64,000 bases of DNA from an uncultured bacterium (GCA_965552055.1 CBEVQO010000005.1:79597-143596); one strand, 5' to 3'; shown: positions 15,708 to 32,303, counted from the stretch's first letter. Notes: a model not told the origin generated them from the letters alone. Numbers and translations: made by a program.

Positions 15708-16107
15708 TGAAAAAAATTGTGTGGGTTGCGGTGTATGTGTGAGGATGTGTCCTTTTAATGCTCGTGAAATGTTCGATGATTTGGAAAATGGCATAAGGAA
15801 GCTTAAATTTTATCCCGAAAGATGCAGGAGATGTGGTTTATGTAAAGAAGTTTGTATAAATTCTGCAATAAATGAAGAAGGCGGAGTAGATGAAATTAAA
15901 AAAGAGTTAGTATTTTGTGATAAATGTGGTGCTGTTTTGACAACGCGTGCACATTTATTTTACATAATAAATAAGTTAAAAGAGAAGTATTATGCAAATC
16001 AAACTTTGAGGAGAATATCAGCGGAAAATATGGGAATTGAAACCAGAGATTTAAAACTTTGTCCTTTATGTTTAATGGAAGAGTATAAGAAAGTGAGGGC
16101 GATATGA
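15697..16107 (+). CDS. NuoI/HycF/MbhN-like 2x[4Fe-4S] subunit
   Basis: CVGCGVCVRMCP and CRRCGLCKEVC motifs. Its tail (CDKCGAVLTTRAHLFYIINKLKEKYY) parallels the 32889 NuoI-like protein (CDRCGEVISTKQHLLWLAHKLGEMAY). Confidence 0.75.
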   Translation: MKFNEKNCVGCGVCVRMCPFNAREMFDDLENGIRKLKFYPERCRRCGLCKEVCINSAINEEGGVDEIKKELVFCDKCGAVLTTRAHLFYIINKLKEKYYANQTLRRISAENMGIETRDLKLCPLCLMEEYKKVRAI

Positions 16108-19100
16108 AAAAATATTTGATTGTACTTTTTGTGTGTTTAAATGTAGAGGCGCTTACCCTTAAGAATCCATTTGACATGCCCAAAAAAGGCATCTGGTATC
16201 GCAAACCTGGTATAAAAGCGGTTGACGGGATAGGATTGATGGTGGGTTATCCTCTTTCTTCTGTTCGTATTTTTAAATATTCCCTTGGATATCAATTGAA
16301 GTATTTACCGATGCTTGGGGTTGGCTGTGCATTCTGGGAAGGGCTTTGTTACTATAATTATAGCGATTCCCTGTGCAGTTCGCTTTTTCCAGTGTATTTT
16401 TATCTGGTAAATGGTTATAGTCCTTATCGTGATAAGAAAGCAAAAGACTGGTCCTGCAGGCCTGTTCTTTACACCTATGTGTCTTTTTCCATGTGGTCAA
16501 GTTTGAGGTATCACAGCAAAAGGGATGGTGCTTTTATAAGAGGGGGACTTGCTTTAAGATGGAATTTTGGTACATTTTCTTATGGCTTGGAAGCGGGTGT
16601 GTTTAAAATATGGTCTAAAAATGGTTTTGATACCGGTATAAAATTTTATTTTGGATTGATAGGTGGCTGGGGTGGATGGCTGGGTCTTGGTGTTAAGAAA
16701 TTTTATCCTCCTAAATTTGTGCCAGAAGTTGTAATAGAAGATTCTACAGGAGATGGAGTTTTTACACCATCAGAGAAAGGAAAAATAATTTTAAAAGTAA
16801 AAAATGAAGGAAAAGGACCTTCTTTGAAATTGAAAATATTTCCCGAAATTTTAACAGAACAATTTAAAGATGCGATAAAGATAGGCAAATTTAAAATGGT
16901 TAAAAGAATAAAAGTGGGTGCTGAACATCAATGGGAAGTGCCTTTGCGAACAGAATGGTTTTTACCTGAGGGCGAATGTGAAATTGCATTTAAAGGTATA
17001 GATGCAAAGTTTAATAAAATGGAAGTGAGGACGAAAATCAGGGCACAGAGAACACCTCCTCCAGAGTTATATGTTGAATTCAAAGATAAAACAGGTGATG
17101 GAATTTTAACGGGAGAAGAATCAGGAGAGATAAAGGTGAGTGTGCAAAATGTTGCGAGAACAACCCTTTACGGCATAAAATTGATATGCCGTCCGGATAA
17201 AGATTTGCAAAAATATATTTCGGTTAAAAAATCGGTGGTAATAGGAAAATTATCACCCCGTAGAAGAAAAGAAGCAAAATTTGATTTAAGAAGTTTACAT
17301 TCATTACCAACGGGTGAATTTAAATTAACAATTGTTTGCAGGGATGCCCGTGGTAGAGAAAATAAAGAAGAGATTACTATAAAAACACAGAAATTACCTG
17401 CACCTGATTTCGAAGTAGAATTCGCCGACCCCAATAATTCAGGCTATCTTGAAGCAGGAGAAGAAGCAGAAATTTTGCTTAAATTTAAAAATAAATCAAT
17501 AGGCACTAATAAAAACATAGTTGTTAATCTATCTTTAAAAGAGAAAAAATTCGAAAAACATATTGAAATACCCGAAAAAGTGAAATGCGGAGATATATTG
17601 AGCGGTAAAGAAAAGAGGATACCCGTTAAAATAAAAGCTGGCTTTTATCTACCCGATGGTGAGATAACAATTGTTGCAAGGGGTAAAGATGACCTTGACA
17701 ATACTTTTGAAAAAGAGTTAAAAATAAGGACAAAGAGTGTGGTGCTACCGGAAATGATAGTAGAATTTAGGGACGAAAACAAAAACAGTGCACTTGAACC
17801 ATCTGAAAAGGGTAATATTTTTGTTGTTTTGAAAAATAGATGGGCGTTGCCGAATAGAGGTATAAAATTGAAATTGAATATTAAGGAGTTAAAATTCCAG
17901 AAAGAAATTATTTTGCAAAAGTTTATAAATGTTGGTACAATAAAACCGGGTGCTGTTTGCAGTACCAGGGCATTTATCGTTGCGAAGCCCACGCTACCGG
18001 AAGGCGAGTTTACGATAAAAATAGAAGGAGAAGATTTTAAAGGTAATAAATTTTCGAAAGAGATAACCATACCCACTCGAAAAATCCTTGCACCTGAGCT
18101 ATCCGTATCTTTTGCTGATGCATCCGGGGACGGTATTTTTGATGCAGGTGAAGAGGGGGTATTGAAACTGAAGTTGAAAAATGTAAGTGGATTAAAGCAT
18201 CAAGATGTTGTTATGGAAATAAAGGTAAAGGAACATAAATTTGCTAAAGATTTGAAGTTTCAGGATAAAGTGAATATGGGTGACCTTTTACCTGATGAAG
18301 AGAAGGAGAAAGAAATAAAGATAGTGGCTAAAAAATCTTTGCAATCAGGTGAATTTACTTTACTTATAAAAGGAGAAGATAAACTTGGTGTTAAATTTTC
18401 GGAAGAACTTACTATAAGAACAAAAGCACTTCCGCCTCTTGCGCTAACACCAAGATTAATAGATGAAAGGAAAGATGGTGTGCTTGAAGCAGGTGAGAAA
18501 GCAGAATTTCATCTCGAAATAACGAATTCAACTCCCGTTAAATTAACAGGGATAAAAGTTTATTTAATGCCCGATGTAAAGATAGCAAGGTATTTAAAAT
18601 TTGTAAAAAGCAAATCTGTTGGCTCAATGGAACCCGGTGCTACAGATAGCGTGAAATTACCGGTTAGAGCATTTTATAACATCAGGGAAGGAGAATTTCC
18701 TTTAACATTTAAAATCGAAACCGCAGAAGGAATAAAAGCCGAAGGGAAATACCTGTTGAAAACCAAAAAAGCGTATCCACCTGAAATGTATGTGAGATTT
18801 GAAGACGAATCAAAAGATGGTGTGCTTTCGCCGGGTGAAAAGGGAGAGGTAAAAATAAGTTTCAAAAATACATCTTTTGTAAGATTTTCAAATGTTAGGC
18901 TAACATTTAACATAAAAGAGATAAGATACAGGAAATTGGTAAAAATTCAATCTTCCAGAAAGATAAAGATAGAGCCACAATCTGAGGAAGAAATAGCAAT
19001 ACCTGTGAGCACGAAGAAAAAAATAAAAGAAGGACAATTTACCATCGCTATAGATTACGAGGATGAATTCCATCATAGAATAAAACGGGAAATAAAAATC

Positions 19101-19115
19101 GAGGTAAAAAAATAA
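16104..19115 (+). CDS. Surface protein: N-terminal ~200-aa aromatic-rich putative beta-barrel region followed by ~8 tandem CARDB-like Ig-fold repeats
   Basis: Signal peptide. The N-terminal segment is rich in alternating aromatic and Gly residues (GLIGGWGGWLGLGV). Then come repeated ~115-aa units starting P(E/D)hxVEFxDxxxDGxLxxGExGxhxhxhKN, typical of CARDB domains. Confidence 0.6.
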   Translation: MKKYLIVLFVCLNVEALTLKNPFDMPKKGIWYRKPGIKAVDGIGLMVGYPLSSVRIFKYSLGYQLKYLPMLGVGCAFWEGLCYYNYSDSLCSSLFPVYFYLVNGYSPYRDKKAKDWSCRPVLYTYVSFSMWSSLRYHSKRDGAFIRGGLALRWNFGTFSYGLEAGVFKIWSKNGFDTGIKFYFGLIGGWGGWLGLGVKKFYPPKFVPEVVIEDSTGDGVFTPSEKGKIILKVKNEGKGPSLKLKIFPEILTEQFKDAIKIGKFKMVKRIKVGAEHQWEVPLRTEWFLPEGECEIAFKGIDAKFNKMEVRTKIRAQRTPPPELYVEFKDKTGDGILTGEESGEIKVSVQNVARTTLYGIKLICRPDKDLQKYISVKKSVVIGKLSPRRRKEAKFDLRSLHSLPTGEFKLTIVCRDARGRENKEEITIKTQKLPAPDFEVEFADPNNSGYLEAGEEAEILLKFKNKSIGTNKNIVVNLSLKEKKFEKHIEIPEKVKCGDILSGKEKRIPVKIKAGFYLPDGEITIVARGKDDLDNTFEKELKIRTKSVVLPEMIVEFRDENKNSALEPSEKGNIFVVLKNRWALPNRGIKLKLNIKELKFQKEIILQKFINVGTIKPGAVCSTRAFIVAKPTLPEGEFTIKIEGEDFKGNKFSKEITIPTRKILAPELSVSFADASGDGIFDAGEEGVLKLKLKNVSGLKHQDVVMEIKVKEHKFAKDLKFQDKVNMGDLLPDEEKEKEIKIVAKKSLQSGEFTLLIKGEDKLGVKFSEELTIRTKALPPLALTPRLIDERKDGVLEAGEKAEFHLEITNSTPVKLTGIKVYLMPDVKIARYLKFVKSKSVGSMEPGATDSVKLPVRAFYNIREGEFPLTFKIETAEGIKAEGKYLLKTKKAYPPEMYVRFEDESKDGVLSPGEKGEVKISFKNTSFVRFSNVRLTFNIKEIRYRKLVKIQSSRKIKIEPQSEEEIAIPVSTKKKIKEGQFTIAIDYEDEFHHRIKREIKIEVKK

Positions 19116-19164: not shown

Positions 19165-20154
19165 ATGAAGACCCTGTTCTGTTACAAGGATGTTTTTAGA
19201 GAGTTTTTAAAGAAGTTATCCTGCAGATATAAAATTTTTGCTCCTGTTGAAGGCATTTTTGGTACTTCTTTTGAGCAGCTTGATGAAGATAATATTGATA
19301 GGATTCGCTTATTTGATGCTCGTTTGTCACAATCACTTAAATGGTTTTTCTATCCGCCTTTTGAATGTGTAACAGAAGAAGCAAAAGCAGAAGATTTTAT
19401 AGTGATAGGAGCAAAAGCATGCGATATAAAGGCTTTAAAAATACTTGATAATGTGTTTATTGGTGGAGATTATGTTGATGATTTTTATAAATCAAAAAGA
19501 GAAAAGGGTATAATAATTGCTTGTGATTGCACTGAGCCTTTGGAATATTGTTTTTGCATATTGCTGGGTGATAAGCCATATGTTGAAGAGGGTGCTGACC
19601 TATCGATTTCCGAGGTCCCACGGGGATACATAATAGATGTTTTGACGGAAAAAGGAGAGAATTTAATTCGTGGATTGAATTCAAGAGAAGCAGAAAGGAC
19701 AGAAATTGAGCAAAGGGAGGACAATAGAAAAAAAGTTATAGAAAAATTAAAAGAGATAAATAAGAAATTCAAATCCCTTGATAATGTTCGTGATATTATA
19801 AAAGATTTATATGATAGTGAAGTGTGGCGTGAATATAGTGAGAGATGTGTTGAATGTGGTGCATGCACAATGGTATGTCCATCCTGTCATTGTTTCCTTT
19901 TACAGGAGAGTGTTGTCAGGGAATTTGGCAAAAACAGAGTTTGGGATTCATGCCAATATACCGGGTTTGCAAGGGAAGCAGGAGGTGCCAATCCTCGTAA
20001 AGAAGTATTTGAGCGCCTGAGAAACAGGTATTATTGTAAGTTCCAGTATAAGCCCGAGAATTTTGACCTTGTTGCGTGCACTGGCTGTGGTAGATGTGTT
20101 GCGGCGTGTCAGGGTGGGATTGATATGAGAGAGGTTTTGAGCAAGATGCTATGA
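19165..20154 (+). CDS. Sulfhydrogenase beta-subunit (HydB/AsrA)-like iron-sulfur protein
   Basis: CVECGACTMVCPSCHCF and CTGCGRCVAACQ motifs. 329 aa. ATGA coupling to the downstream gene. Confidence 0.75.
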   Translation: MKTLFCYKDVFREFLKKLSCRYKIFAPVEGIFGTSFEQLDEDNIDRIRLFDARLSQSLKWFFYPPFECVTEEAKAEDFIVIGAKACDIKALKILDNVFIGGDYVDDFYKSKREKGIIIACDCTEPLEYCFCILLGDKPYVEEGADLSISEVPRGYIIDVLTEKGENLIRGLNSREAERTEIEQREDNRKKVIEKLKEINKKFKSLDNVRDIIKDLYDSEVWREYSERCVECGACTMVCPSCHCFLLQESVVREFGKNRVWDSCQYTGFAREAGGANPRKEVFERLRNRYYCKFQYKPENFDLVACTGCGRCVAACQGGIDMREVLSKML

Positions 20155-21020
20155 GCATTTATAAGCCAATAAGAGCAAGGGTAGAGAAAATAGTTGATGA
20201 GACACCAAACATTAAAACATTTACACTTGTGCCAGAAAAGGAGATATCTTTTAAAACCGGTCAATTTATAGCACTTACTGTGCCAAAAGTAGGAGAAGCT
20301 CCTTTTACCCCTTCATCTTCACCTTATCAGAAAGATAAATTTGATGTTACGATAATGAAAATCAATTATAGAACAAGAGAAGGATTTGAGTATAAAGGTT
20401 ATGTTACTAATGCGATTCACAATTTGAAAGAAGGAGATGTTGTTGGAGTGAGGGGTCCTTATGGTCGTGGTTATCCTGTTGATAAGATGTATGGTAAAGA
20501 GATTTTGATAGTAGGTGGTGGTGTTGGCATGGCACCTTTGAGGTCTTTTCTTTTGACAGTTTTGCATGATATTGATAAATTTAAGAGGGTTATTTTATGT
20601 TACGGAGCAAGGACTCCCAAAGATATAGTTTATAAGAAGCAATTTGAAGAAGAATGGATGAAAAACGAAAGGTTAGAGGTTTACAGAAGTGTTGACAAAG
20701 CAGATGAAACTTGGCGAGAAGTTGAAGGAGTAGTTACTGTTTTACTTGATCAGTTTAAACCCGGTGATAAAAAAGCAATAAATCCGGATGAGTGTATATC
20801 TGTGGTTTGTGGTCCACCTATAATGATGAAATTTACGGTTAAAAAGCTGGTTGAAGATTTGAAGTTAAAGCCTGAAAATATTTATTTGTCTATGGAAAAG
20901 AATATGTCATGTGGCTTGGGTAAATGCGGTCACTGTCAGATAGGCAAATATTATGCATGTAAAGATGGTCCGGTATTTGCATATTCAGAAATAATGGATA
21001 TACCGGGGATATGGGAATGA
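20151..21020 (+). CDS. Sulfhydrogenase gamma-subunit (HydG/AsrB/PyrK)-like FAD/NAD(P)-binding oxidoreductase with C-terminal [2Fe-2S]
   Basis: FNR-like fold (ILIVGGGVGMAPLRSF, GPP motif) and a C-terminal CGLGKCGHCQIGKYYACKDGPVF cluster motif. Confidence 0.8.
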   Translation: MSIYKPIRARVEKIVDETPNIKTFTLVPEKEISFKTGQFIALTVPKVGEAPFTPSSSPYQKDKFDVTIMKINYRTREGFEYKGYVTNAIHNLKEGDVVGVRGPYGRGYPVDKMYGKEILIVGGGVGMAPLRSFLLTVLHDIDKFKRVILCYGARTPKDIVYKKQFEEEWMKNERLEVYRSVDKADETWREVEGVVTVLLDQFKPGDKKAINPDECISVVCGPPIMMKFTVKKLVEDLKLKPENIYLSMEKNMSCGLGKCGHCQIGKYYACKDGPVFAYSEIMDIPGIWE

Positions 21021-21424
21021 AATCAAAAATTGTAGAGAAGGTTCGTTTTACAAATTTTGTTGATAAAGAAAAGGTAGTGGAAGCCGATGCTTTAATTGAT
21101 ACAGGTGCTACTATTTGTGCTTTACCGAAAGATATGGTTGAGAAATTGGGCTTACAGAGATTGAGGAAAGCAAAAGTCCGCCATGCTGATAATAGAGTAG
21201 CGGAAAAAGATGTTTACGGTGTTGTAACTATAAGGATTCTCAACAGAGAAGGTGAGTTTAATGTTGTATGTGAGGAAGAGGGTACCCAGCCCTTGATTGG
21301 CTTAACGGTTTTGGAGCAATTAGATTTAATGATTGACCCATCGAGGAAATGTGTGATACCCAACCCAAGGTCAGGTGATTTACCTGTAGTTGATTTAATA
21401 AGCCATGAAGCGAATATTTATTGA
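21017..21424 (+). CDS. Retropepsin-like (clan AA) small aspartic protease, paralog 1
   Basis: ALIDTGATICALP carries the D-T-G-A catalytic motif. ~135 aa. The distal IGLTVLEQLDLMIDP region is retropepsin-like. ATGA overlap with the hydG-like stop when started at the 21017 ATG (the ORF-track start is 21011). Confidence 0.6.
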   Translation: MKSKIVEKVRFTNFVDKEKVVEADALIDTGATICALPKDMVEKLGLQRLRKAKVRHADNRVAEKDVYGVVTIRILNREGEFNVVCEEEGTQPLIGLTVLEQLDLMIDPSRKCVIPNPRSGDLPVVDLISHEANIY

Positions 21425-21863
21425 TCTGGAGAAGTGTTATAAATGCGAGAAGTGTGTAGCCAGGTGCAACTATCCGTATCATCCGGATAATAATGGGGTG
21501 CTGAAACTGATAGAAATGGGTGTGAGGGAAACCGTTTGCAGAAAATGTGAAGATGCTCCCTGTATAAATGCATGTCCAAACGAAGCTCTTGAAAGATTAG
21601 AAGATGGAAGAGTTAAAAGGTATAATATGAGGTGTACTGGATGTGGCACATGTGTTGTTGCATGTCCTTTTGGTGTTATTTTCCATGAAATAATAACCTA
21701 TTATGATTCGCAATGTGATTTCTGTGAAGGAAGGGAACCTTTATGTGTGAAGACATGTCCTCATGGTGCGATAAAATATGAAGAGGTTGAAGAAGAGCCC
21801 GAAAAAAGGGTTTATGTTATTGGAGATAAATTTGCTGTTCATGCAATGGGGTGGGAGAGATGA
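21405..21863 (+). CDS. HycB/HydN-like 4Fe-4S ferredoxin (electron-transfer subunit)
   Basis: Four Cys clusters (CYKCEKCVARC, CRKCEDAPCINACP, CTGCGTCVVACP, CDFCEG..CVKTCP). Confidence 0.8.
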   Translation: MKRIFIDLEKCYKCEKCVARCNYPYHPDNNGVLKLIEMGVRETVCRKCEDAPCINACPNEALERLEDGRVKRYNMRCTGCGTCVVACPFGVIFHEIITYYDSQCDFCEGREPLCVKTCPHGAIKYEEVEEEPEKRVYVIGDKFAVHAMGWER

Positions 21864-22780
21864 AGTGGCTATTTGATTTTGTGGTATTTCCTGGCTTTGT
21901 ATTTACTGCGGTAATTGGGTGTATAGTCAAGTGGTTTGACAGGAAGCTTACTGCGAGGATACAGTGGCGGGTTGGTCCACCTTTTTTACAGCAGTTTTAT
22001 GACTTTATAAAACTTACTGCGAAGGAAACGATAATACCAAAAGGTGCAGGTGCTACATTTGTATTGCCTCCGATTATAAGTGTAGTAGCAGTTACTATTG
22101 TGTCAACATTGATATGGAAAGCGATATTAAATCCCGAGCAGACATTTGTTGGTGACCTTATCGTTGTGATTTATTTCCTTATGGTTCCTAATATTTGTGC
22201 GATAATAGGGGGTGCTGCTTCTCGCAATCCTTTGGCTTCTTTGGGTGTAAGCAGGGAGTTGAAGCTGTTACTTGCTGACGAGTTGCCCTTTATTCTTGCT
22301 GCATTTGTACCTGTTATAAAGGCACATACAATTAGACTTGGAGAGTTACTTACATGGCAATGGAATAATGAATTGTTTATTGCTTCTGCATCAGGTATTA
22401 TTGCATTTCTCGTAATTTTAGCGTGTATGCAGGCGAAACTTGCTTATCAGCCATTTGACATTCCTGAGGCAGAGACAGAGATAATAGCAGGTCCTTATAC
22501 TGAGTATTCTGGTGTGCTTCTGGGTCTTTTCCTTTTATCTCGCTGGATGCTGTTATTTGCACTACCCATGTTTGTAGTTGTTATGTTCCTTGGTGGCATT
22601 AAATTTTCTGGCTGGCATACTCTCTGGGGTATTTTGAAGTATATAGGATTGCTGATTTTGATAATAGTGGTTAAGAATACGAATCCGAGGATAAGGATAG
22701 ATCAGGCTCTTAAATTTTTCTGGTGGGGTGTTACACCTCTTGCTATTTTGTCTGTTGTTCTTGCACTATTTGGTTTGTAA
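21860..22780 (+). CDS. NuoH/MbhM/HycD-like membrane subunit of the group-4 hydrogenase
   Basis: RKLTARIQWRVGPP signature of NuoH-family subunits and ~8 TM helices. Start chosen at the ATG that overlaps the upstream stop as ATGA. The ORF track uses the GTG at 21851. Confidence 0.85.
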   Translation: MKWLFDFVVFPGFVFTAVIGCIVKWFDRKLTARIQWRVGPPFLQQFYDFIKLTAKETIIPKGAGATFVLPPIISVVAVTIVSTLIWKAILNPEQTFVGDLIVVIYFLMVPNICAIIGGAASRNPLASLGVSRELKLLLADELPFILAAFVPVIKAHTIRLGELLTWQWNNELFIASASGIIAFLVILACMQAKLAYQPFDIPEAETEIIAGPYTEYSGVLLGLFLLSRWMLLFALPMFVVVMFLGGIKFSGWHTLWGILKYIGLLILIIVVKNTNPRIRIDQALKFFWWGVTPLAILSVVLALFGL

Positions 22781-22887
22781 TGCGAGCGTTAGCGAGCTCA
22801 TTTCATATGGGTTTTTTGTCGCACCCGAGCGAAGCGAGGGTTGCGCAAATGGGAAGGTGGGGACTGGGAGGCGGGGCTAAAAATATC
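22781..22887 (-). repeat. GC-rich intergenic repeat, compact inverted copy (R1) of the family also found at 33947 and 45537
   Basis: The reverse complement contains TTAGCCCCGCCTCCCAGTCCCCACC, a CGCAACCCTCGC core, and GCTCGCTAACGCTCGCA. These match the head, core and tail motifs of R2 and R3. Confidence 0.7.
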
Positions 22888-22914
22888 TTGACAAAGTTAT
22901 ATTTTGATTATAAG
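22888..22914 (+). promoter_or_regulatory. Internal promoter-like element TTGACA-N15-TATAAG upstream of the NuoB-like gene
   Basis: Same architecture as the other promoters in the window. It lies between repeat R1 and the ATG at 22922. Confidence 0.45.
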
Positions 22915-22921
22915 AAGAGCC

Positions 22922-23338
22922 ATGGGTATTAAGATTGGTGCTTTAAAGAGGTCTATATGGCTTTTTCATTTTAATTCGGGTTCATGCAATAACTGTGATA
23001 TTGAGATTGTTGACTGTTTAACTCCTCGGTATGACATTGAGAGATTTGGCTTGAAACTTGTAGGTAGCATTCGTCATGCTGATGTTCTTGTAGTAACGGG
23101 TTTTGTCAGCCGTCAGAGTGCTATTCGTTTAAAGAGGTTGTGGGAGATGATGCCAGAGCCTAAGTTTGTTGTAGCAGTTGGTACCTGTGCGTGTTCTGGT
23201 GGTATTTTTGCAGAATCCTATCATATGGCGGGTCCTGTTGATAAGATAATACCTGTTCATGCTTATATACCAGGTTGTCCGCCCAAGCCGGAAGCTATAA
23301 TTTCTGGTATTGTGAAATTGTTGAACACTTTAAAATGA
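22922..23338 (+). CDS. NuoB/MbhJ-like [NiFe]-hydrogenase small subunit (group 4)
   Basis: CNNCDIEI, GTCACSGG and IPGCPP cysteine motifs for the proximal 4Fe-4S cluster. Start set at the ATG (MGIKIG) downstream of the promoter element. The ORF-track start at 22904 lies inside the promoter. Confidence 0.85.
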   Translation: MGIKIGALKRSIWLFHFNSGSCNNCDIEIVDCLTPRYDIERFGLKLVGSIRHADVLVVTGFVSRQSAIRLKRLWEMMPEPKFVVAVGTCACSGGIFAESYHMAGPVDKIIPVHAYIPGCPPKPEAIISGIVKLLNTLK

Positions 23339-23712
23339 GTGAAATCAAAGTTATGGAGGATTTACTGAAAGAGGCAAAGAAATATATTGAAGAGGGTAAT
23401 GTTGTTCAGGCGAGCGAGAAGATTTATAAGGTGATAGAGGAAGGCATTAAGTTTTTATCGAGCAGGGATGGAGTTCCTGAATATTCTGTTGCGCAGAAGG
23501 AAGGCAGGTGGTGGACGCATTTACTTGGTAAGGCAGCTGTTCGACTTTCTAAAAAATATAATGAACAGATGATAAATGATTGCTGGGCAAATGCCTATGA
23601 CCTTCATGTATGGGGTTATCACGAAAGGAAATATGATATGGATACGGTTAAACCTAAATTGAGATATGCAGAGTGGATGCTTGAATTTGTAAAGAAGGTG
23701 TCAAATGAGTGA
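23335..23712 (+). CDS. Small helical protein, family X copy A (tentatively PaREP1/HEPN-like)
   Basis: ~125 aa. EAKKYIEEGNVVQASEKIYKVIEEGIKFL...LHVWGYHER motifs. The start overlaps the NuoB-like stop as ATGA. The longer ORF-track start at 23275 is rejected. Confidence 0.55.
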   Translation: MSEIKVMEDLLKEAKKYIEEGNVVQASEKIYKVIEEGIKFLSSRDGVPEYSVAQKEGRWWTHLLGKAAVRLSKKYNEQMINDCWANAYDLHVWGYHERKYDMDTVKPKLRYAEWMLEFVKKVSNE

Positions 23713-24085
23713 GGAGATAAAAGTTATGGAAGAGTTGCTGAAGGAGGCAAAGAAATATATTGAAGAGGGTAATGTTGTTCAGGCGAGCGAGAAGATTTAT
23801 AAGGTGATAGAGGAAGGCATTAAGTTTTTATCGAGCAGGGATGGAGTTCCTGAATATTCTGTTGCGCAGAAGGAAGGCAGGTGGTGGACGCATTTACTTG
23901 GTAAGGCAGCTGTTCGACTTTCTAAAAAATATAATGAACAGATGATAAATGATTGCTGGGCAAATGCCTATGACCTTCATGTATGGGGTTATCACGAAAG
24001 GAAATATGATATGGATACGGTTAAACCTAAATTGAGATATGCAGAGTGGATGCTTGAATTTGTAAAGAAGGTGTCAAATGAGTGA
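23705..24085 (+). CDS. Small helical protein, family X copy B (identical to copy A at nucleotide level except the first ~25 nt)
   Basis: Tandem duplicate with an 8-nt ATGAGTGA start/stop overlap. Confidence 0.55.
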   Translation: MSEEIKVMEELLKEAKKYIEEGNVVQASEKIYKVIEEGIKFLSSRDGVPEYSVAQKEGRWWTHLLGKAAVRLSKKYNEQMINDCWANAYDLHVWGYHERKYDMDTVKPKLRYAEWMLEFVKKVSNE

Positions 24086-24458
24086 GGAGATAAAAGTTAT
24101 GGAAGAGTTGCTGAAGGAGGCAAAGAAATATATTGAAGAGGGTAATGTTGTTCAGGCGAGTGAGAAGATTTATAAGGTGATAGAAGAAGGCATTAAGTTT
24201 TTATCGAGCAAGGATGGGATACCAGAGTATTCTGTTGCGCAGAGAGAAGGCAGATGGTGGATGCATTTGCTTAGTAAGGCATCTCGTCGTCTTTCTAAAA
24301 AATATAATGAAGATGAAATTTATCATGTGTGGAGTGTTGCGTATGATTTGCATGTATGGGGCTATCATGAAAGGAAACTTGATATAGAAGATGTTAAGCC
24401 AAATATTAAATATGCGGAGTGGATGCTTGAATTTGTGAAGAAGGTGTCAAATGAGTAA
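24078..24458 (+). CDS. Small helical protein, family X copy C (~80% identical to A and B)
   Basis: Third tandem copy, with the same 8-nt overlap into the NuoC-like gene. Confidence 0.55.
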   Translation: MSEEIKVMEELLKEAKKYIEEGNVVQASEKIYKVIEEGIKFLSSKDGIPEYSVAQREGRWWMHLLSKASRRLSKKYNEDEIYHVWSVAYDLHVWGYHERKLDIEDVKPNIKYAEWMLEFVKKVSNE

Positions 24459-24879
24459 GATTGATAAAATAAAAGAAAAGTTTGAGAAAGAGATAAAAAA
24501 GATAAAAAAAGTTGGTGAATTTGAATATTTTATTGATATTGACAGAAGAGATTTGCTTAAAGTGGTTGATTATATTTTTAACGATTTAAAAGGCAGATAC
24601 AATATTTTGTCTGCAACGGATCTGGAAGAGGGTTTTGAGATCCTTTATCATTTTAGTTTTGATGAAGAAGGTAAAAGGGTTACTTTGAGGGTGATGCTGT
24701 CTCATGAAAATCCAGAAGTTGAATCGATAAGTAGTATTGTAAAAGGTGCGCAATGGATAGAGAGGGAGATTATGGATTTACTTCCTATTAAATTTTTGAA
24801 TCATCCTGATCCTCGCAGATTTATCTTATCCGATGATTGGGAAGAGGGGGTATATCCTTTGAGAAGGGAGAAGAGATGA
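24451..24879 (+). CDS. NuoC/MbhK-like hydrogenase subunit
   Basis: EILYHFSF...RVTLRVML and the AQWIEREIMDLLPIKFLNHPDPRRFIL NuoC signature. Confidence 0.8.
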   Translation: MSKIDKIKEKFEKEIKKIKKVGEFEYFIDIDRRDLLKVVDYIFNDLKGRYNILSATDLEEGFEILYHFSFDEEGKRVTLRVMLSHENPEVESISSIVKGAQWIEREIMDLLPIKFLNHPDPRRFILSDDWEEGVYPLRREKR

Positions 24880-26087
24880 AAAGGGTGATACCGATAGGCC
24901 CTTATCATCCATTACAGGAAGAAGCGGAGTTTTTCCAATTATATGTTGAAGGTGAAACGGTAGTTGATGTTGACTGGAAAACAGGTTTTAATCACAGGGG
25001 GATAGAGAAAATTTCACAATCGCTTTCTTATGATCAAGTTGCTTTTCTTGTGGAGAGAGTTTGTGGGATATGTTCCACTTCTCATCCGATTGCCTATTGT
25101 AATGCTGTTGAAGAGATATGTGGTATTGAGATACCTGAGAGAGCAAAGTATATAAGGAGCATAATAGGCGAATTGGAGCGTATACATTCGCATTTATTGT
25201 GGCTGGGGCTCGCAGGTCATTTTATTGGATATGACACACTGTGGATGTGGGCATGGAAATACAGAGAGCCTGTTCTCGACATCATGGAGATGATAACGGG
25301 AAATAGGCAAAATTATGCAATGATGAAGCCAGGGGGCGTTAGGAGAGATATCGATGAAGATAAGATACCTGATATTAAAAAAGTTTTAAATAGTTTGAAA
25401 CCTGTTCTTGAAAAGTTTGCCAAAATTGCAATGGATGATCCTGTTTTGCATGCTCGCACAAAGGGTGTTGGTATATTGACAAAGGAAGAGGCACATAATT
25501 TTGGGGCAGTGGGTCCTACTGCGAGGGCATCTGGCTTAAAAATAGATGTGAGGTGTGATTTTCCTTATGCTGCTTATCCTCTTGTTGAATGGGAAGTTAT
25601 AACAACGGAAAATGGAGATGTTTTTGATAAAATTGTTGTAAGAGTGCTTGAGATGATAGAATCTGTTAAAATAATTGAGCAATGTCTTGATAGGTTGAAA
25701 GAAGCGAAAGGAGAGATTGATGCAAAGATAAAGGAAGTTCCACCTGGTGAAGGTATAGGGACTCATGAAGCTCCAAGGGGTGAGGTTTTTCATTATGTAA
25801 AGTCAGATGGCAGTAATAGACCTGTGAGGCACAAAATAAGGGCACCGAGTTATTGTAATGTTCCGACATTTAAAGTTACATGCGTTGGATATCAGGTTGC
25901 TGATGCGGTTATTGCGCTTGCAGCGGTTGACCCTTGTTACAGCTGTACTGAAAGGATGGAAGCGATAGTTGATGGCAAAAGGATTTTAAAGTGGAGAGAT
26001 TTGATAAGGATGAGCAGGCAGAAGACAGAAAAGATAAAGGCAGAGGTTGGCAGGGATTTTCTTTTGAAAGAAAAACCCGAATTGTGA
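24876..26087 (+). CDS. Group-4 [NiFe]-hydrogenase large subunit (NuoD/HycE/MbhL-like) with intact Ni-Fe ligands
   Basis: N-terminal ERVCGICSTSH (RxCGxC) and C-terminal DPCYSCTER (DPCxxC). After the cleavage-site Arg there is a ~43-aa C-terminal extension. Start at the ATG with a GGGAGAAGAG ribosome-binding site and ATGA overlap with the NuoC-like stop. Confidence 0.9.
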   Translation: MKRVIPIGPYHPLQEEAEFFQLYVEGETVVDVDWKTGFNHRGIEKISQSLSYDQVAFLVERVCGICSTSHPIAYCNAVEEICGIEIPERAKYIRSIIGELERIHSHLLWLGLAGHFIGYDTLWMWAWKYREPVLDIMEMITGNRQNYAMMKPGGVRRDIDEDKIPDIKKVLNSLKPVLEKFAKIAMDDPVLHARTKGVGILTKEEAHNFGAVGPTARASGLKIDVRCDFPYAAYPLVEWEVITTENGDVFDKIVVRVLEMIESVKIIEQCLDRLKEAKGEIDAKIKEVPPGEGIGTHEAPRGEVFHYVKSDGSNRPVRHKIRAPSYCNVPTFKVTCVGYQVADAVIALAAVDPCYSCTERMEAIVDGKRILKWRDLIRMSRQKTEKIKAEVGRDFLLKEKPEL

Positions 26088-26491
26088 TGGATGTAATAAA
26101 AGAAATGGAAGTAAGTTTATATTGTGACGGAAAAAGTAGTAAAAAGATGAGATTATATTTTGATAGTGGCTCACCTTATACTTTTATAAAAAAGTCGAGT
26201 GCAGAAGCGATAGGAGGTATTTTTAAATTACCATCTGAAGAAAGATTCGTTGGACTTGGAGGCGGCGGATTTATAAGTGCGGAAGCACAGCATCTTCATA
26301 TAAAGGTTTCAAATGTATGGTGCGCGCATTTTGTTTATGTGATTGATGATGCTATTTTCAAAGATGAGTATGATATGCTTGTTGGTCATGATTTTATGCA
26401 AAAATATGGTATAAAGGTGGTGCCTCATACAGGTGATATTGAGATAGATGAGGTTAGATTGAAATTATCGCAAACTGTGAGGATGGTATGA
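26087..26491 (+). CDS. Retropepsin-like small aspartic protease, paralog 2 (D-S-G-S variant)
   Basis: YFDSGSPYTFI aligns with the DTGA and DTGS motifs of paralogs 1 and 3. The ATG overlaps the large-subunit TGA by 1 nt (TGATG). Confidence 0.5.
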   Translation: MDVIKEMEVSLYCDGKSSKKMRLYFDSGSPYTFIKKSSAEAIGGIFKLPSEERFVGLGGGGFISAEAQHLHIKVSNVWCAHFVYVIDDAIFKDEYDMLVGHDFMQKYGIKVVPHTGDIEIDEVRLKLSQTVRMV

Positions 26492-28281
26492 CGGATATTC
26501 TTTATCTATTATTAATACCTGCTGGTGCCGGTGTTTTGAGTTTGTTGTTGCCTCGTCGTGCTAAAATTGGTGCAGAAATAATTGGCTTACTTGGTAGTGC
26601 GGGAGCGCTCTTTTATTGTGTGCTTATCTATTTGCGTTATAACTCATTTACCAATGCATGGTGGAGAATCGATGGATTATCCCGTTTTATACTTTTATTC
26701 TGTGGTATTTTTGGATTTATAATAACTCTTTATTCACTTCCTTATATGAGGAAATTTAAAAAGTTAAATGAGTATTATGGCTATCTGTTATTTACAATTG
26801 CAGGTTCATTTGGTGTGGTTCTTGCCAACAATTTGATTTTATTCCTTGCCTTGTGGGGCTTTTTGGGTTTGACTCTTTATCTTCTGGTAAACATAAGTGA
26901 TGAAGGCTCGCCTGCAGCGAAGAAGACGATGATAATTGTAGGAGGTGCAGATTGTTTGATGATATTCGGGATAGTTGTATTAATTTTGATGACTTTTTCT
27001 TTCAGGATGGACCAGATGAATGTAAATGTTTCGGTTTCTCCTTTAGCGGCTCTTGCCTTTGTTGTTCTTGCACTTGCTGCCTTTGCCAAAGCAGGTGTTA
27101 TGCCCATGCATACATGGATGCCTGATTATACGCAATGTGCACCAACATCCGTAGCTGCTTATCTGCCTGCGTCACTTAATAAATTGTTGGGAATATATCT
27201 GCTTATGAGATTGGTTAAAGATATTTTTAAGTTGAATAATGCTATGCAAATATTTTTGCTTGCTATTGGAGCATTCACTATTATAGCTGGTGTAATGATG
27301 GCGTTAATCCAGCATGATGTTAAAAGAGTGCTTTCTTATGATGCAATATCACAGGTTGGATATATGGTGCTGGGGATAGGGACATTGAATTCCATAGGTT
27401 TTAGCGGAGGTTTATTCCATATGTTAAATAGTGCGATATTTACAGGATGTTTATTTCTTACTGCAGGGAGTGTTGAACACAGGTCAGGCACAACCGACCT
27501 TGATAAACTTGGAGGATTGTCTCGCTATATGCCTGTTACTTTTATTGCATTTATAATATCAGCGCTGGCGATATCAGGAGTGCCGCCACTTAATGGCTTT
27601 TTCAGTAAATGGATGATTTATCAGGGGATAATTAAGCTTGGTGAAAAGAGTAAACTTTGGATTTTGTGGATTGCGTGTGCGATGTTTGGTAGTGCGTTGA
27701 CCCTTGCAAGTTTTATGAAGCTTTTGCATGCAATTTTCCTCGGACAAAAAGCCGATTATAAGAAAGAAATAAAAGAGGTGAATTTTGCAATGTTGCTACC
27801 GCAAATGTTCCTTGCTGCTTTATGCTTTGTATTTGGTATATGGGCATTTAATGTTCCACTGAGTAAATTGATTTATCCTGCTGTTGGAAGTGTGCCTCAT
27901 TTTGTAGGCTGGTGGGAGCCCTGTCTTGCTACGATTTTGATAATCGTGGGAATATTAATAGGTGCTATAATTTATGTTGCTGGAAAAGTGAAGGTCAGGG
28001 AAGAGGAGCATCCATTTATCGGTGGAGAGATTTTACCAGAAGAAGCAAGGATTACGGGTGTAGATTTTTATAAGACAGTAGAAGAGATGTGCGTTATAAG
28101 GACTTTTTACGGCTTGGCAAAGAAAAAATTGTTCGATATTTATGAATTGTGCAAAAGAATGTTTCTCTATCTTGGAAGTAAGATTTCGAAGTTGCATACT
28201 GGTGTTTTGACATCTTATATTGGCTGGATATTCTTTGGTTTTATCATAATTTTATTCGTGGTTTGGATGCTTAAATGGTAG
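26488..28281 (+). CDS. MrpA/NuoL-like antiporter-type membrane subunit (proton-conducting membrane transporter family)
   Basis: 597 aa with ~16 TM helices. The WMPDYTQCAPTSVAAYLPASLNKLLGIYLLMRL core is typical of the NuoL/MrpA/MrpD family. Confidence 0.8.
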   Translation: MTDILYLLLIPAGAGVLSLLLPRRAKIGAEIIGLLGSAGALFYCVLIYLRYNSFTNAWWRIDGLSRFILLFCGIFGFIITLYSLPYMRKFKKLNEYYGYLLFTIAGSFGVVLANNLILFLALWGFLGLTLYLLVNISDEGSPAAKKTMIIVGGADCLMIFGIVVLILMTFSFRMDQMNVNVSVSPLAALAFVVLALAAFAKAGVMPMHTWMPDYTQCAPTSVAAYLPASLNKLLGIYLLMRLVKDIFKLNNAMQIFLLAIGAFTIIAGVMMALIQHDVKRVLSYDAISQVGYMVLGIGTLNSIGFSGGLFHMLNSAIFTGCLFLTAGSVEHRSGTTDLDKLGGLSRYMPVTFIAFIISALAISGVPPLNGFFSKWMIYQGIIKLGEKSKLWILWIACAMFGSALTLASFMKLLHAIFLGQKADYKKEIKEVNFAMLLPQMFLAALCFVFGIWAFNVPLSKLIYPAVGSVPHFVGWWEPCLATILIIVGILIGAIIYVAGKVKVREEEHPFIGGEILPEEARITGVDFYKTVEEMCVIRTFYGLAKKKLFDIYELCKRMFLYLGSKISKLHTGVLTSYIGWIFFGFIIILFVVWMLKW

Positions 28282-28823
28282 ACCTTTATATCATAATTGG
28301 GATTATGATTTTAAGTGCCATAATTGCTCTTGAAGTACGGGACCTTATTTCTTCGATTATATGTGCTGGTGTGTGTGGTTTTGCACTTGTTTTTGTGTTT
28401 CTGCGTTTACATGCACCTGACCTTGCGGTCGTTCAAATGATTGTGGAAACTCTATCTTTAATAATTTTAATAGCAGCAATTTTGAGGACTACAAGAGAAG
28501 ATGTTCAGGAAGGGATTTCATTTAACAAAGTAATTTTGTATCTTGGAGGACTATTTTTTGTGATAATATTTATGATATTTGCATATAATGTTATAAATGA
28601 TATGGCGAAGTTTGGAGAGCCATATTTGAGAATGTCTTATCCTTATATTGAGCAAGGTGTTAGAAGTTTATTCAATGGTGGTCCAAAAGTTGCGAATATT
28701 GTGGGAGCTGTTCTGCTTGATTTCAGGGGATATGATGCACTTGGATGTGCTACAGTGCTGTTTGCCTCTGCGATAGGTGTTCTTGTAGTTTTGAGGAAAA
28801 TAGGTAGAAAAAAGGATGTTTAA
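28275..28823 (+). CDS. MbhD/MrpA-C-terminal-like (DUF4040-type) small membrane subunit
   Basis: 182 aa with 4-5 TM helices, located in the Mrp module. Confidence 0.55.
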   Translation: MVDLYIIIGIMILSAIIALEVRDLISSIICAGVCGFALVFVFLRLHAPDLAVVQMIVETLSLIILIAAILRTTREDVQEGISFNKVILYLGGLFFVIIFMIFAYNVINDMAKFGEPYLRMSYPYIEQGVRSLFNGGPKVANIVGAVLLDFRGYDALGCATVLFASAIGVLVVLRKIGRKKDV

Positions 28824-29217
28824 ATTTGATAAATATTTAAAGGAAGCAAAGAGATATATTGAAAAAGGGGATGCGGTGCAGGCAAGCGAGAAACTTTATA
28901 AGTGTGGTAAAGAAGCGATAAAATTGCTAGCTGAAACTTTTGATATTGAAGAAAATAAAGAAGCAAAAGAGATGGGAAGATGGTATACGCCTTTACTTGG
29001 AAATGCTGCGATTAGATTGAGTAAAATTGTGGATAGCAGGATATTTGCTTTTTGGAAGACAGTTTATTATTTGCATTGTGAAGGGTTTCATGAGCGTCAT
29101 CTTGATGTTGAAAATGTAAGAGAAAATCTTAAAGATATTGAAGAATTGGTTGAAATAGCGAAGAAATATAAAAATGAAAGAGGGATAAATGAAGGAAGGG
29201 ATGAGTTTGATAGTTAA
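28816..29217 (+). CDS. Small helical protein, family X copy D (~35% identical to A-C)
   Basis: AKRYIEKGDAVQASEKLYKCGKEAIKLL...LHCEGFHERHLD. The same 8-nt overlap style (ATGTTTAA) with the upstream gene. Confidence 0.5.
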   Translation: MFKFDKYLKEAKRYIEKGDAVQASEKLYKCGKEAIKLLAETFDIEENKEAKEMGRWYTPLLGNAAIRLSKIVDSRIFAFWKTVYYLHCEGFHERHLDVENVRENLKDIEELVEIAKKYKNERGINEGRDEFDS

Positions 29218-29626
29218 AACAGTTGCAAGGATTTTAAGCTGGGTAATAGCACTTTATGGTGCTTACATTGTGGCGCATGGTCATCTTACACCTGGTGGTG
29301 GTTTTGCAGGGGGTGCTATAATTGCCTGTGCTTTTATTCTGCTGTTCCTCGCTTACGGGTCCGAGGTGAAAGAAAGCCGGGTTAAGCTTTTACAGGCGTT
29401 ATTTGCAGGAAGCCTTGGAGTATTCTTCTTCTGGCTGATTGCACTACTTGGATTATGTTTCGGAACATACTTCTTCTCAAACTTATTTGCTAAGGGTAAA
29501 GCATTTTGTCTTTTTAGTGGTGGGATAATTCCTGTTTGTAATGCTACGATAGGTTTTGGAGTGGCAGGTGCTTTGTGTATGATATTCATAGGTTTTGCTG
29601 CAATTAAATTATTGGAAGGAAAATGA
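29189..29626 (+). CDS. MrpB/MnhB-like membrane subunit
   Basis: HGHLTPGGGFAGGAI signature of MnhB-family subunits. Confidence 0.75.
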   Translation: MKEGMSLIVKTVARILSWVIALYGAYIVAHGHLTPGGGFAGGAIIACAFILLFLAYGSEVKESRVKLLQALFAGSLGVFFFWLIALLGLCFGTYFFSNLFAKGKAFCLFSGGIIPVCNATIGFGVAGALCMIFIGFAAIKLLEGK

Positions 29627-29973
29627 TTTATTATTTGCTTGGAATATTGCTTTTTGCGATAGGGCTGTATGGAGTGCTTACAAAGAGGAATCTATTTAAA
29701 ATAATAATTGGCTTGCTGATAATAGAATATGCTGTATTTTTGATGTTTGCACTTGTGGGATACAGAGAAGGAGGCATTGCTCCTGTTTTTGTGAAAGGCT
29801 TATCAGCAGGAGATGCGATACAAAAAATGGTTGACCCTATTCCTCAATCACTGGCTCTAACTGTGATGATTATTGGATTGGGTGCTATTGCATTGATATG
29901 TGCACTTGCCGTAAGGATTTATGAAAAATATGGTACACTCGATGTCAGGAAAATTAAGAAATTAAAAGGATGA
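29623..29973 (+). CDS. MrpC/NuoK-like membrane subunit
   Basis: 116 aa with three TM helices. YLLGILLFAIGLYGVLTKRNLFKIIIGLLIIEYAV is typical of NuoK/MrpC. Confidence 0.8.
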   Translation: MIYYLLGILLFAIGLYGVLTKRNLFKIIIGLLIIEYAVFLMFALVGYREGGIAPVFVKGLSAGDAIQKMVDPIPQSLALTVMIIGLGAIALICALAVRIYEKYGTLDVRKIKKLKG

Positions 29974-30332
29974 TGGGCATGGTGGAAGTTAAAATTAAAA
30001 TGATAAATCCCCAGAATGGTAAAAAAATGTGTGAGTTAAACTTTGTAGCAGATACAGGTTCGATTTACAGTGTGGTATCTGTTGAGGAACTTTCAAAGAT
30101 AGGGATAACTCCTCGGTATGAGCGTGAGTTTAAAACTATTGACGGTAAAAAGATTCGTCGCAAAGTTGGCATTGCAATATTTAAATACAAAGAATATGAA
30201 GGAGGAGCTCCTGTGATTTTTGGTGAAAAAGAAGATATGAATGTGCTTGGTGTTACTGCACTCGAAGCAATGGGACTGGAAGTTGACCCTGTAAATAAAG
30301 AATTAAAACCTGTAGAATTATTGTTGCTATGA
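29970..30332 (+). CDS. Retropepsin-like small aspartic protease, paralog 3
   Basis: FVADTGSIYSVV (D-T-G-S). 120 aa. The ATG overlaps the upstream stop as ATGA, and the downstream start overlaps this gene's stop as ATGA. Confidence 0.55.
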   Translation: MMGMVEVKIKMINPQNGKKMCELNFVADTGSIYSVVSVEELSKIGITPRYEREFKTIDGKKIRRKVGIAIFKYKEYEGGAPVIFGEKEDMNVLGVTALEAMGLEVDPVNKELKPVELLLL

Positions 30333-31813
30333 TGGAGTGGAGCATTCCAATATTTGTTGCTATACCTTTATTCTTTGCGTTTATTTTACCGATTGCAGGT
30401 AGGAAGTCAGAGAGGGTGGGTGATGTGCTTGCAAATATAGGGACACTTACTACATTAATATTCGCTATACTGAATGTTAAATTTATGAAAGAAACATCGG
30501 TATATTATGTCGGAGGATGGAAGTTGCCCATGGGAATCTATCTTGTGCGTGATGCACTTACAATATTTATGCTCATTACGGTAAATCTTGTTGCGTTTAT
30601 GTCAACTTTATTCTCAATAAATTATATGCAGAAATTTACAGATAAAACAAAATATTATGCATTATTTATGTTGATGCTTGCTGGTATGAATGGTGTGATA
30701 ATTACAGGTGACTTTTTCAACCTTTATGTTTTCCTTGAGATAGCTGCGATTGCATCTTATGCACTTGTAGCGTATGGGATAGAATCAGAAGAGTTAGAAT
30801 CTGCATTCAAATATCAGGTGATGGGAAGTGTCGGTTCTGCATTTATTCTTCTGGCAATAATTCTGATTTATTCTCATACAGGTACATTGAATATGGCTGA
30901 TGTAGGTAAAGTTCTTAAAGAAAAAGGTTTATCAAATCTTTTAATTTTTACAAGTGTTTTATTTATCGTTGGCTTTGGTATAAAGGCTGGTGTTATTCCT
31001 TTCCATGCGTGGTTGCCCGATGCACATCCATCTGCACCTGCACCAATATCCGCAATGCTATCAGGAGCTGCGATAAAAGTAATGGGAATCTATCCATTAA
31101 TCAGAATAATTTATAATGTAATAGGGTTTAATGAATTGTTCTCCAACATTTTGATGATTCTTGCTGTCATTTCAATAATAATCGGTGATTTACTTGCACT
31201 GTTGCAATGGGATTATAAGCGTTTGCTTGCATATTCGAGTATAAGCCACATCGGATTCATATTGCTTGCTGTGGGATTGGGTACGCCTCTTGGAATTCTT
31301 GCAGGATTATTCCATTTATTTAATCATTCTGTTATTAAAGCGTTGTTATTCCTGAATTCTGGTAGTATTGTTTATTCTGCTGGTACTAGGGATTTAAAAG
31401 AGATGGGAGGATTAGATAAAGATATGCCTGTGACAAGTAAAACAAATCTAATAGGTTCTATGTCTATTGCAGGTATTCCGCCATTTAATGGATTCTGGTC
31501 GAAGTTGCTGATTATAGTGGCGTGTATTACAGCGGGTAAAGCGGGCTATGCATGGTGGGCGATAGCAGGTAGTATAATCACACTCGCTGTGTTTGCCAAA
31601 GCATACAAATATGTATTCTGTGGTGAAAGTAAGAAAAAAGTTAAAGAATCACCTGCATGGATGTGTATAGCGATGATAATACTGGCAATAATTTGTGTTG
31701 CAGGAGGATTGTTGCTCTTACCAGAAGTAAAAGTCGCTTTCTTAAATCCAGTAGTGGAAGTGATTAGAGGAGGTTTACAGTATATCGATAGGGTGCTGGG
31801 AGGATTGCAATGA
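30329..31813 (+). CDS. MrpD/NuoN-like antiporter-type membrane subunit
   Basis: HAWLPDAHPSAPAPISAMLSGAAIKVMGIYPLIRI core and ~14 TM helices. Confidence 0.85.
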   Translation: MMEWSIPIFVAIPLFFAFILPIAGRKSERVGDVLANIGTLTTLIFAILNVKFMKETSVYYVGGWKLPMGIYLVRDALTIFMLITVNLVAFMSTLFSINYMQKFTDKTKYYALFMLMLAGMNGVIITGDFFNLYVFLEIAAIASYALVAYGIESEELESAFKYQVMGSVGSAFILLAIILIYSHTGTLNMADVGKVLKEKGLSNLLIFTSVLFIVGFGIKAGVIPFHAWLPDAHPSAPAPISAMLSGAAIKVMGIYPLIRIIYNVIGFNELFSNILMILAVISIIIGDLLALLQWDYKRLLAYSSISHIGFILLAVGLGTPLGILAGLFHLFNHSVIKALLFLNSGSIVYSAGTRDLKEMGGLDKDMPVTSKTNLIGSMSIAGIPPFNGFWSKLLIIVACITAGKAGYAWWAIAGSIITLAVFAKAYKYVFCGESKKKVKESPAWMCIAMIILAIICVAGGLLLLPEVKVAFLNPVVEVIRGGLQYIDRVLGGLQ

Positions 31814-32295: not shown

Positions 32296-32303
32296 GAGCA
32301 GTT

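Follow-up and report, generated by a model that had tools for sequence, protein, structure and literature searches.

How does a hydrogenase operon come to hold three small, closely related genes in tandem, and do the products of these genes belong to the hydrogenase? The question is raised by a stretch of 64,000 nucleotides (nt) from an uncultured bacterium (GCA_965552055.1, CBEVQO010000005.1:79597-143596), which we refer to in its entirety as the window. An earlier note on this DNA, made from the sequence alone, had reported a triplicated gene for a small helical protein between NuoB-like and NuoC-like genes, and had listed recent duplication, ongoing gene conversion, or an assembly artefact as possible causes. 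We consider it probable, with the reservations discussed below, that the three genes are a tandem array of the PaREP1 family, that the third copy was produced by recombination within this array, and that the encoded proteins are accessory proteins rather than components of the hydrogenase.

The array consists of three head-to-tail open reading frames (ORFs), called A, B, and C, whose start-to-start period is 373 nt. They lie at the coordinates first reported for them, and the assignments of the flanking genes as NuoB-like and NuoC-like also hold (Pfam Oxidored_q6, E 5e-34, and Complex1_30kDa, E 1e-25). The features that define the array are the following, where E values refer to Pfam PF05942 (PaREP1) and lengths of proteins are in amino acids (aa).

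23335-23712 (+): PaREP1 copy A; 125 aa; E 2.5e-29; 99.2% nt identity to the first copy of the related contig L001
23705-24085 (+): PaREP1 copy B; 126 aa; E 3.2e-29; chimera, identical to C over nt 1-83 and to A over nt 40-381
24078-24458 (+): PaREP1 copy C; 126 aa; E 5.4e-31; 82-85% nt identity to A and B
23371-24160 (+): exact tandem repeat of 2.12 units of 373 nt, from a period-373 identity map

Copies A and B are the same over 342 nt (A nt 37-378 and B nt 40-381) without a mismatch. This agrees with the ~340 nt reported earlier, although the start of the identity had been placed slightly early, at about codon 9, and the last difference is in fact in codon 12. Copy C, which had been described as ~80% identical to the others, proves somewhat more similar (85.3% for B-C and 82-84% for A-C). 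In addition, the first 83 nt of B match those of C exactly. The resulting exact repeat extends over 417 nt (23371-23787 and 23744-24160) at an offset of 373 nt and is out of register with the gene boundaries. Judging from the sequence, a repeat of this kind cannot be due to chance.

A tract of 44 nt (nt 40-83) is common to all three copies, where it occupies positions 23371-23414, 23744-23787, and 24117-24160. At the sites that differ between A and C, copy B is of the C type through nt 39 and of the A type from nt 84, with only one switch, and the breakpoint of this chimera falls inside the shared tract. The combination is captured by a 95-nt string of B (nt 21-115; TATGGAAGAGTTGCTGAAGGAGGCAAAG...GGCGAGCGAGAAG...GATAGAGGAAGGCA) that is unique in the window: after a C-type head, it reads C at nt 84 and G at nt 108. 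With only one switch point, in a tract common to A and C, B can be explained by a single unequal crossover. Within the 44-nt tract, one such event or a slip of replication would duplicate a 373-nt unit and leave a middle copy with the head of C and the body of A. We propose that the third copy arose, or is maintained, through homologous recombination within the array. The ends of A and C (5ˊ codons 13-43 and 3ˊ codons 111-127) are nearly identical, synonymous sites included, whereas in the middle, 14 codons differ synonymously and 20 non-synonymously. These near-identical ends are consistent with either conversion of the ends or a constraint exerted by translational coupling.

The copies are closely joined to one another and to their neighbours. 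The A/B and B/C junctions are 8-nt ATGAGTGA overlaps of stop and start, the stop of copy C and the start of the NuoC-like gene share an 8-nt ATGAGTAA overlap, and the stop of the NuoB-like gene overlaps the start of copy A by the 4 nt ATGA. The earlier description of 8-nt overlaps at the A/B, B/C, and C/NuoC-like junctions is thus accurate. Each copy also carries a purine-rich AAGAAGG at its 3ˊ end, and we infer from this sequence and the stop/start overlaps that the array is probably expressed through translational coupling. We saw no sign of a promoter or terminator inside the array, since counts in a scan of the operon were close to the shuffled expectation.

Comparison with related assemblies shows that the array varies between strains. 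Over 19.5 kb, contig L001 (ENA ERZ27248328) agrees with the window at 98.4-98.7% identity, with 0-3 mismatches in most 250-nt bins, but it has two PaREP1 copies at the NuoB/NuoC junction where the window has three. Its first copy corresponds to A, while its second matches B and C equally, at 88% identity. In this second copy, 25 A-type and 33 C-type sites form a patchwork with 7 that match neither and 13 that are private, a pattern which indicates gene conversion. The copy is also the divergence hotspot of the operon, with 45 mismatches in 381 nt. Because this sister strain has two copies, the second of them mosaic, the sequence comparison shows the array to be polymorphic among strains in both copy number and sequence. 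The variation in copy number within the population that the earlier note had anticipated is therefore seen once related genomes are compared. Recombination and gene conversion therefore continue to act on the array across the population.

Other assemblies add to this picture. A scan of metagenomes yielded one contig of the same species (JGI 3300022470; L002, which is the same as L089), 99.4% identical to the window; it breaks off after 142 nt of a B-like second copy and is silent on copy number. Across four strain-level assemblies with 99.0-99.6% identity, PaREP1 is present in all wherever the position is covered. As an observation on the adjoining region, the divergence of the NuoD-like gene from L001 at 24750-25750 is ~5%, compared to a background of ~0.7%, and this segment forms one stretch with the last, divergent PaREP1 copy. 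The divergence of the two points to a tract brought in by recombination from a more distant strain.

The description of the product as a small helical protein was correct, and the family can now be named. All four PaREP1 copies in the window, including a more distant paralogue introduced below as D, match the Pfam model PF05942 at 98.5-107.3 bits (cutoff 24.4). Neither NCBIfam, which gave no match to a PaREP1 model, nor PADLOC, which gave no PaREP1 match, adds to this assignment. The sole relative by sequence in the PDB is Sulfolobus solfataricus c02003 (2JPU/2Q00; phmmer E 1.1e-14). An AlphaFold2 model of copy C (predicted local distance difference test score 97.5) has 2Q00 as its best fold match, with a template modelling (TM) score of 0.81-0.87 and a root mean square deviation of 1.8-2.3 Å, and it resembles the classical HEPN structures 2HSB, 1O3U, 1UFB, and 1WOL at TM scores of 0.63-0.72. 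The fold search of the PDB matched no PaREP1-like chain in respiratory-complex structures.

We aligned the four window copies with 15 database relatives, for a total of 19 sequences. All 22 invariant columns (QASEK, GRW, LHxxGxHE) are retained in the four window copies, including residues G58-R59-W60 and L91-H92-x-x-G95-x-H97-E98. Where canonical HEPN proteins have R-x4-6-H, the window copies have H-x4-H, and the arginine is absent in 19 of the 19 aligned sequences. The ratio of non-synonymous to synonymous substitution rates between copies is 0.13-0.27. Because the copies are under purifying selection and keep all family-invariant residues, the proteins of the array are predicted to be functional. 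No N-terminal RHH domain was found, and the window copies begin ~40 residues later than archaeal members of 160-170 aa. This domain marks a subfamily (the Thermoproteales subfamily of Makarova 2009) rather than the whole PaREP1 family, and A, B, and C are short-form PaREP1/PaREP8 HEPN-domain genes that lack it. PaREP1/PaREP8 corresponds to the HEPN-T clade of Anantharaman et al. 2013 (PMC3710099), in which the histidine of the HEPN motif is conserved in PaREP1 and the arginine is absent, and for which operons of tandem PaREP genes and lineage-specific expansion have been described. The family is expanded in Crenarchaea; it has no link to MNT, and no partner of it is known (Makarova et al., PMC2701414, PMC3632139).

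If these proteins were conserved subunits of a group 4 hydrogenase, they should be present in orthologous operons. A scan with the large subunit as the query against species genomes of GTDB gave 80 loci (1.18 Mb) whose NuoD-like proteins are 58-79% identical to that of the window. These loci come from unclassified bacteria, Omnitrophota, Planctomycetota, Ignavibacteria, and others. Apart from the inserted genes, their genes follow the order seen in the window. None of the 80 contains a PaREP1 or retropepsin-like ORF in the orthologous operon. Because they are absent from all 80, the PaREP1 genes are lineage-specific additions and not conserved hydrogenase subunits.

The operon that received these additions, and the further genes of interest within it, are listed here.

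19165-33946 (+): host operon, group 4 (Mbh/Mrp-type) [NiFe]-hydrogenase, assigned by Pfam matches and gene order
21011-21424 (+): retropepsin-like gene 1; DTGA motif; gag-asp_proteas E 1e-9, Asp_protease_2 E 1.5e-7
22919-23338 (+): NuoB/MbhJ-like hydrogenase small subunit; Oxidored_q6 E 4.7e-34
24451-24879 (+): NuoC/MbhK-like gene; Complex1_30kDa E 1.4e-25
24876-26087 (+): NuoD/MbhL-like [NiFe]-hydrogenase large subunit; Complex1_49kDa E 1e-73, NiFeSe_Hases E 7e-19
26087-26491 (+): retropepsin-like gene 2, start taken from the L001 gene call; DSGS motif; Peptidase_A2B E 5e-5, own hidden Markov model (HMM) E 3.5e-35
28816-29217 (+): fourth PaREP1 paralogue, D; 133 aa, ~45% aa identity to A-C; PF05942 E 2.8e-28
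29970-30332 (+): retropepsin-like gene 3; DTGS motif; Asp_protease_2 E 4e-4, TIGR03698 E 5e-11 (under cutoff)

The genes of the operon run in the order Fer4_22, FAD/NAD, ferredoxin, NuoH, NuoB, NuoC, NuoD, two MrpD/MbhH-like genes, and MbhD/E, followed by MnhB, NuoK, MnhE, MnhG, ferredoxin, and finally the HycI protease gene, and they overlap by 1-29 nt nearly throughout. The large subunit holds both CxxC motifs (RVCGICSTSH and DPCYSCTER). Because SecD and FeoB are of bacterial type, the host is a bacterium; it is AT-rich. Scans of the window for tRNAs and Rfam families found nothing. Between the NuoH-like and NuoB-like genes, there is a 138-nt spacer (22781-22918) that is richer in G and C than its surroundings (47% versus 36%). 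In the close relative L003, these two genes are much closer, with overlapping stop-to-stop frames. Pieces of the spacer recur inverted just past operon ends (GGGGACTGGGAGG at 33952-33964 and GGGAGGCGGGGCTAAAAAT at 45537-45555).

Seven extra small genes, four PaREP1 and three retropepsin-like, occupy five junctions of this operon in the alternating order Asp, Pa, Asp, Pa, Asp, and there are no other genes of either kind elsewhere in the 64-kb window. The PaREP1 identity of the array, its fourth paralogue, and the three retropepsin-like genes had all been overlooked in the earlier note, as had the identity of the B and C heads. PaREP1-D sits between the MbhD/E-like and MnhB-like genes with an 8-nt ATGTTTAA overlap upstream. 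It is also present in L001 and, together with retropepsin-like gene 3, in an independent contig (L169; Logan SRR21024894; 99.2%). The three retropepsin-like genes lie, in order, between the FAD/NAD and ferredoxin subunit genes, between the NuoD-like and MbhH-like genes, and between the NuoK-like and MrpD-like genes. Their products have the D-T/S-G motif of clan AA and are divergent from one another. The first matches TIGR03698 at E 9e-15 and 54.9 bits, under the cutoff of 57.35 bits, and PADLOC gave only weak matches for these proteins (PDC-M08B, PEPT_D).

We also considered whether the inserted genes bear signs of transposition. An 8-nt AAATGAGT flanks the whole PaREP1 array (23332-23339 and 24448-24455), and a 7-nt ATGATGG flanks retropepsin-like gene 3 (29970-29976 and 30329-30335); in both cases, the inserted block and the host gene downstream of it start alike. 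The other three of the five insertion sites have no direct repeats resembling target sites. The repeats were rejected as evidence of transposition, given that only two of five sites have them and that 2 of 66 random pairs of host-gene starts match as well, so that the pattern exceeds chance pairs only marginally.

Elsewhere, PaREP1 genes have heterogeneous neighbours, with 96 Pfam families among 126 neighbouring genes. The commonest are MNT-type nucleotidyltransferases and Asp_protease_2/gag-asp_proteas proteins, each accounting for 4 of the 126. Some PaREP1 genes are single, and others form tandem arrays, as in L092, L101, and L150. In L092 (205-3308), genes for GAPDH (gap) and pgk are followed by at least three tandem PaREP1 genes with 8-nt ATGGATAA overlaps. 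This contig comes from the same JGI sample as L002, has a G+C content of 35.8% compared to 35.7% for the window, and shows a tetranucleotide correlation of 0.93. The same behaviour is thus seen in another housekeeping operon, which probably belongs to this organism or to a close relative of it. As a detail of its PaREP1 proteins, the family-conserved GRW is replaced by EQW.

The recurrence of protease genes near PaREP1 was quantified with an HMM built from the three retropepsin-like proteins of the window and iterated on the fetched loci. Among 82 PaREP1-anchored loci (L090-L168, L083, L084, and L087), 14 have retropepsin-like ORFs, for a total of 18 on unrelated metagenomic contigs, and most of these ORFs carry the D-T/S-G motif. 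Twelve of the 18 are located no more than 500 bp from PaREP1, mostly downstream and on the same strand. No retropepsin-like ORF was found more than 2 kb from PaREP1 in the 262 kb available from the 82 loci, nor was any found in the 1.18 Mb of hydrogenase-anchored loci. The two families thus adjoin far more often at these unrelated loci than placement independent of distance would give. Literature searches for a link between HEPN or PaREP1 and retropepsins turned up no paper that describes one. Examples of retropepsin-like ORFs beside PaREP1 are as follows.

L123 583-972: one ORF
L118 567-992: one ORF
L125 1857-2216 and 3079-3522: two ORFs
L100 485-913: one ORF

Two other accounts of the third copy must be weighed against in-array recombination. 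The true genome might hold only A and C, with B created by an assembler that traversed the repeat loop once too often. B indeed has no unique sequence except its junction combination and occurs in one assembly only, the 417-nt exact repeat exceeds typical short reads, and the break of the JGI contig inside the second copy shows that assemblers struggle there. However, a two-copy genome would share just 44 exact nt, which is below the length of normal reads and final k-mers and would leave no loop to traverse. Assemblers usually collapse tandem repeats instead of expanding them, so that three copies are more likely a lower bound, and a pair of tandem DUF5618 genes in the window cannot be an artefact, which means that such duplication does occur in this genome. 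We judge an artefact to be unlikely. We assign a similarly low probability to an old triplication of stable copy number in which gene conversion has homogenised only the sequence of A and B. Conversion clearly acts in the array, as the patchwork second copy of L001 attests, the similarity of the A and C ends extends to synonymous sites, and the first 142 nt of the second L002 copy resemble B. Yet this account needs two conversion tracts that abut exactly (A to B at nt 40-381, and between B and C at nt 1-83), where a single crossover explains both and is more parsimonious, and L001 has two copies. Of the causes originally listed, the chimeric B supports a recent duplication, and the mosaic L001 copy supports gene conversion. 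The role of the proteins also allows for more than one reading. They could be lineage-specific accessory or assembly factors of the hydrogenase, perhaps along with the retropepsin-like proteins, with the array setting their dosage. This would fit genes that are tightly coupled in translation within the operon, are kept in all four strain-level assemblies, show purifying selection in the case of PaREP1, and number seven in one operon with an alternating order. We nevertheless regard such recruitment as improbable, because the inserts are missing from the 80 orthologous operons, the PaREP1 family adjoins unrelated genes elsewhere, the L092 array behaves in the same way after gap-pgk in a non-hydrogenase operon, and no PaREP1-like chain matched the respiratory-complex structures.

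Several considerations weigh against recombination within an array of accessory genes as the full explanation. Copy B is known from a single assembly, and look-ups of the exact proteins of copy C, NuoC, and NuoD gave no second assembly with three copies. L001 may itself be a collapsed assembly, and the copy number may have risen in the lineage of the window or fallen in L001. For a duplication older than the split of the strains, the lack of any A/B difference over 342 nt is weakly improbable (~2.4 expected, P ~0.09, assuming ~0.7% background divergence). With P no smaller than this, we dropped the idea of dating the duplication after the split. The inserts also cluster in a way that a pure hitch-hiker model leaves unexplained: all seven genes, at five independent sites, fall in the 14.8-kb operon, which has a rough chance of (14.8/64)^5, or ~7e-4, and hints at an operon-specific role. 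Finally, PaREP1 has no assigned biochemical function, and the clade is not known to have RNase activity. On balance, in-array recombination remains our preferred origin for the third copy, and the array proteins are most likely accessory HEPN proteins of a conflict or stress type and not hydrogenase parts. They would hitch-hike in a tightly coupled operon, accompanied by retropepsin-like protease genes whose products may act as partners.

A bolder proposal is that PaREP1 and small clan AA retropepsin-like proteases form a two-gene partnership that has escaped recognition, embedded in operons as conflict or regulatory modules, with the recombining array serving to diversify or dose the HEPN component. 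We hold this to be possible but doubtful. If true, the partnership would supply the PaREP1 partner that Makarova et al. noted as unidentified, and members of both families would be intercalated alternately at five hydrogenase operon junctions and probably after gap-pgk too. A real link would offer a testable partner for PaREP1 and a case of conflict-type genes colonising the junctions of housekeeping operons.

The duplication itself is ordinary, as tandem arrays are already known for the PaREP1 family. The new elements are the bacterial host, the intercalation in a respiratory hydrogenase operon, and the association with retropepsins. A family regarded as essentially crenarchaeal is found here in a bacterium, coupled inside a conserved energy-conserving hydrogenase operon. 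The triplication is a textbook example in which unequal crossover and gene conversion can be seen at work between strains, and the array is useful mainly as a marker of strain variation and as a warning for assembly of the locus.

Some additional features of the window deserve mention. The DUF5618 (PF18498) pair consists of small helical genes at 36056-36490 (-) and 36487-36936 (-) with a 4-nt overlap, 96% aa identity, and ~30 nt differences over the first 415 nt. The pair has its own upstream TTGACA-17-TATAAT and lies two genes away (~0.7 kb, past a Cu-oxidase_4 gene) from a gene for an N6/N4 DNA methylase (37593-38309, -). A weak hhalign match to the LHxxGY region of PaREP1 (E 7e-5) suggests that these proteins might be HEPN-like as well. 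Three giant proteins of ~1000 aa are encoded at 42-3077, 16104-19115, and 57566-60724. The first and last have 'choice-of-anchor D' and OS_HP2-like domains, while the middle one (1003 aa) has an OS_HP2-like domain and weak Ig-like-type matches (e.g. Transglut_C). The gene at 16104-19115 divides two hydrogenase-like clusters and was not found in the 80 related loci. The second, upstream cluster (12202-16107) contains a short NuoD-like gene (322 aa, 14739-15707), three ferredoxin-type genes, and a gene for an unannotated protein of 498 aa, and it is conserved in L001.

Among known systems, the PaREP1/PaREP8 proteins represented by S. solfataricus c02003 are closest to the array in Pfam match, fold, invariant residues, and the missing HEPN arginine, and operons of tandem genes have likewise been reported for this family, which shows lineage-specific expansion in thermophile-type organisms. 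The window genes differ in having a bacterial host, in their form of 125-133 aa without RHH as compared to ~170 aa in archaea, and in being embedded at a junction of hydrogenase subunit genes with stop/start overlaps. HEPN-MNT (HepT-MntA) toxin-antitoxin systems share the small HEPN fold, a scattered and mobile distribution, and the same kinds of gene islands (L083, L087). However, no nucleotidyltransferase stands beside the window array, whose neighbours are NuoB-like and NuoC-like genes, and the R of Rx4-6H is missing from its proteins. Canonical catalytic HEPN RNases differ in the same respect, as their Rx4-6H active-site motif is absent in the window copies. The host operon has the full canonical gene set and order of Mbh/Mrp-type group 4 [NiFe]-hydrogenase operons, both CxxC motifs, and a terminal HycI, and departs from them in its seven extra genes and the 138-nt spacer, which are absent in relatives. 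Lastly, the chimeric middle copy, whose only breakpoint lies in a shared tract, the mosaic strain alleles, the homogenised ends, and the copy-number polymorphism are all features of the concerted evolution of tandem paralogue arrays. The mechanism is an ordinary one, and only its location and the gene family are unusual here.

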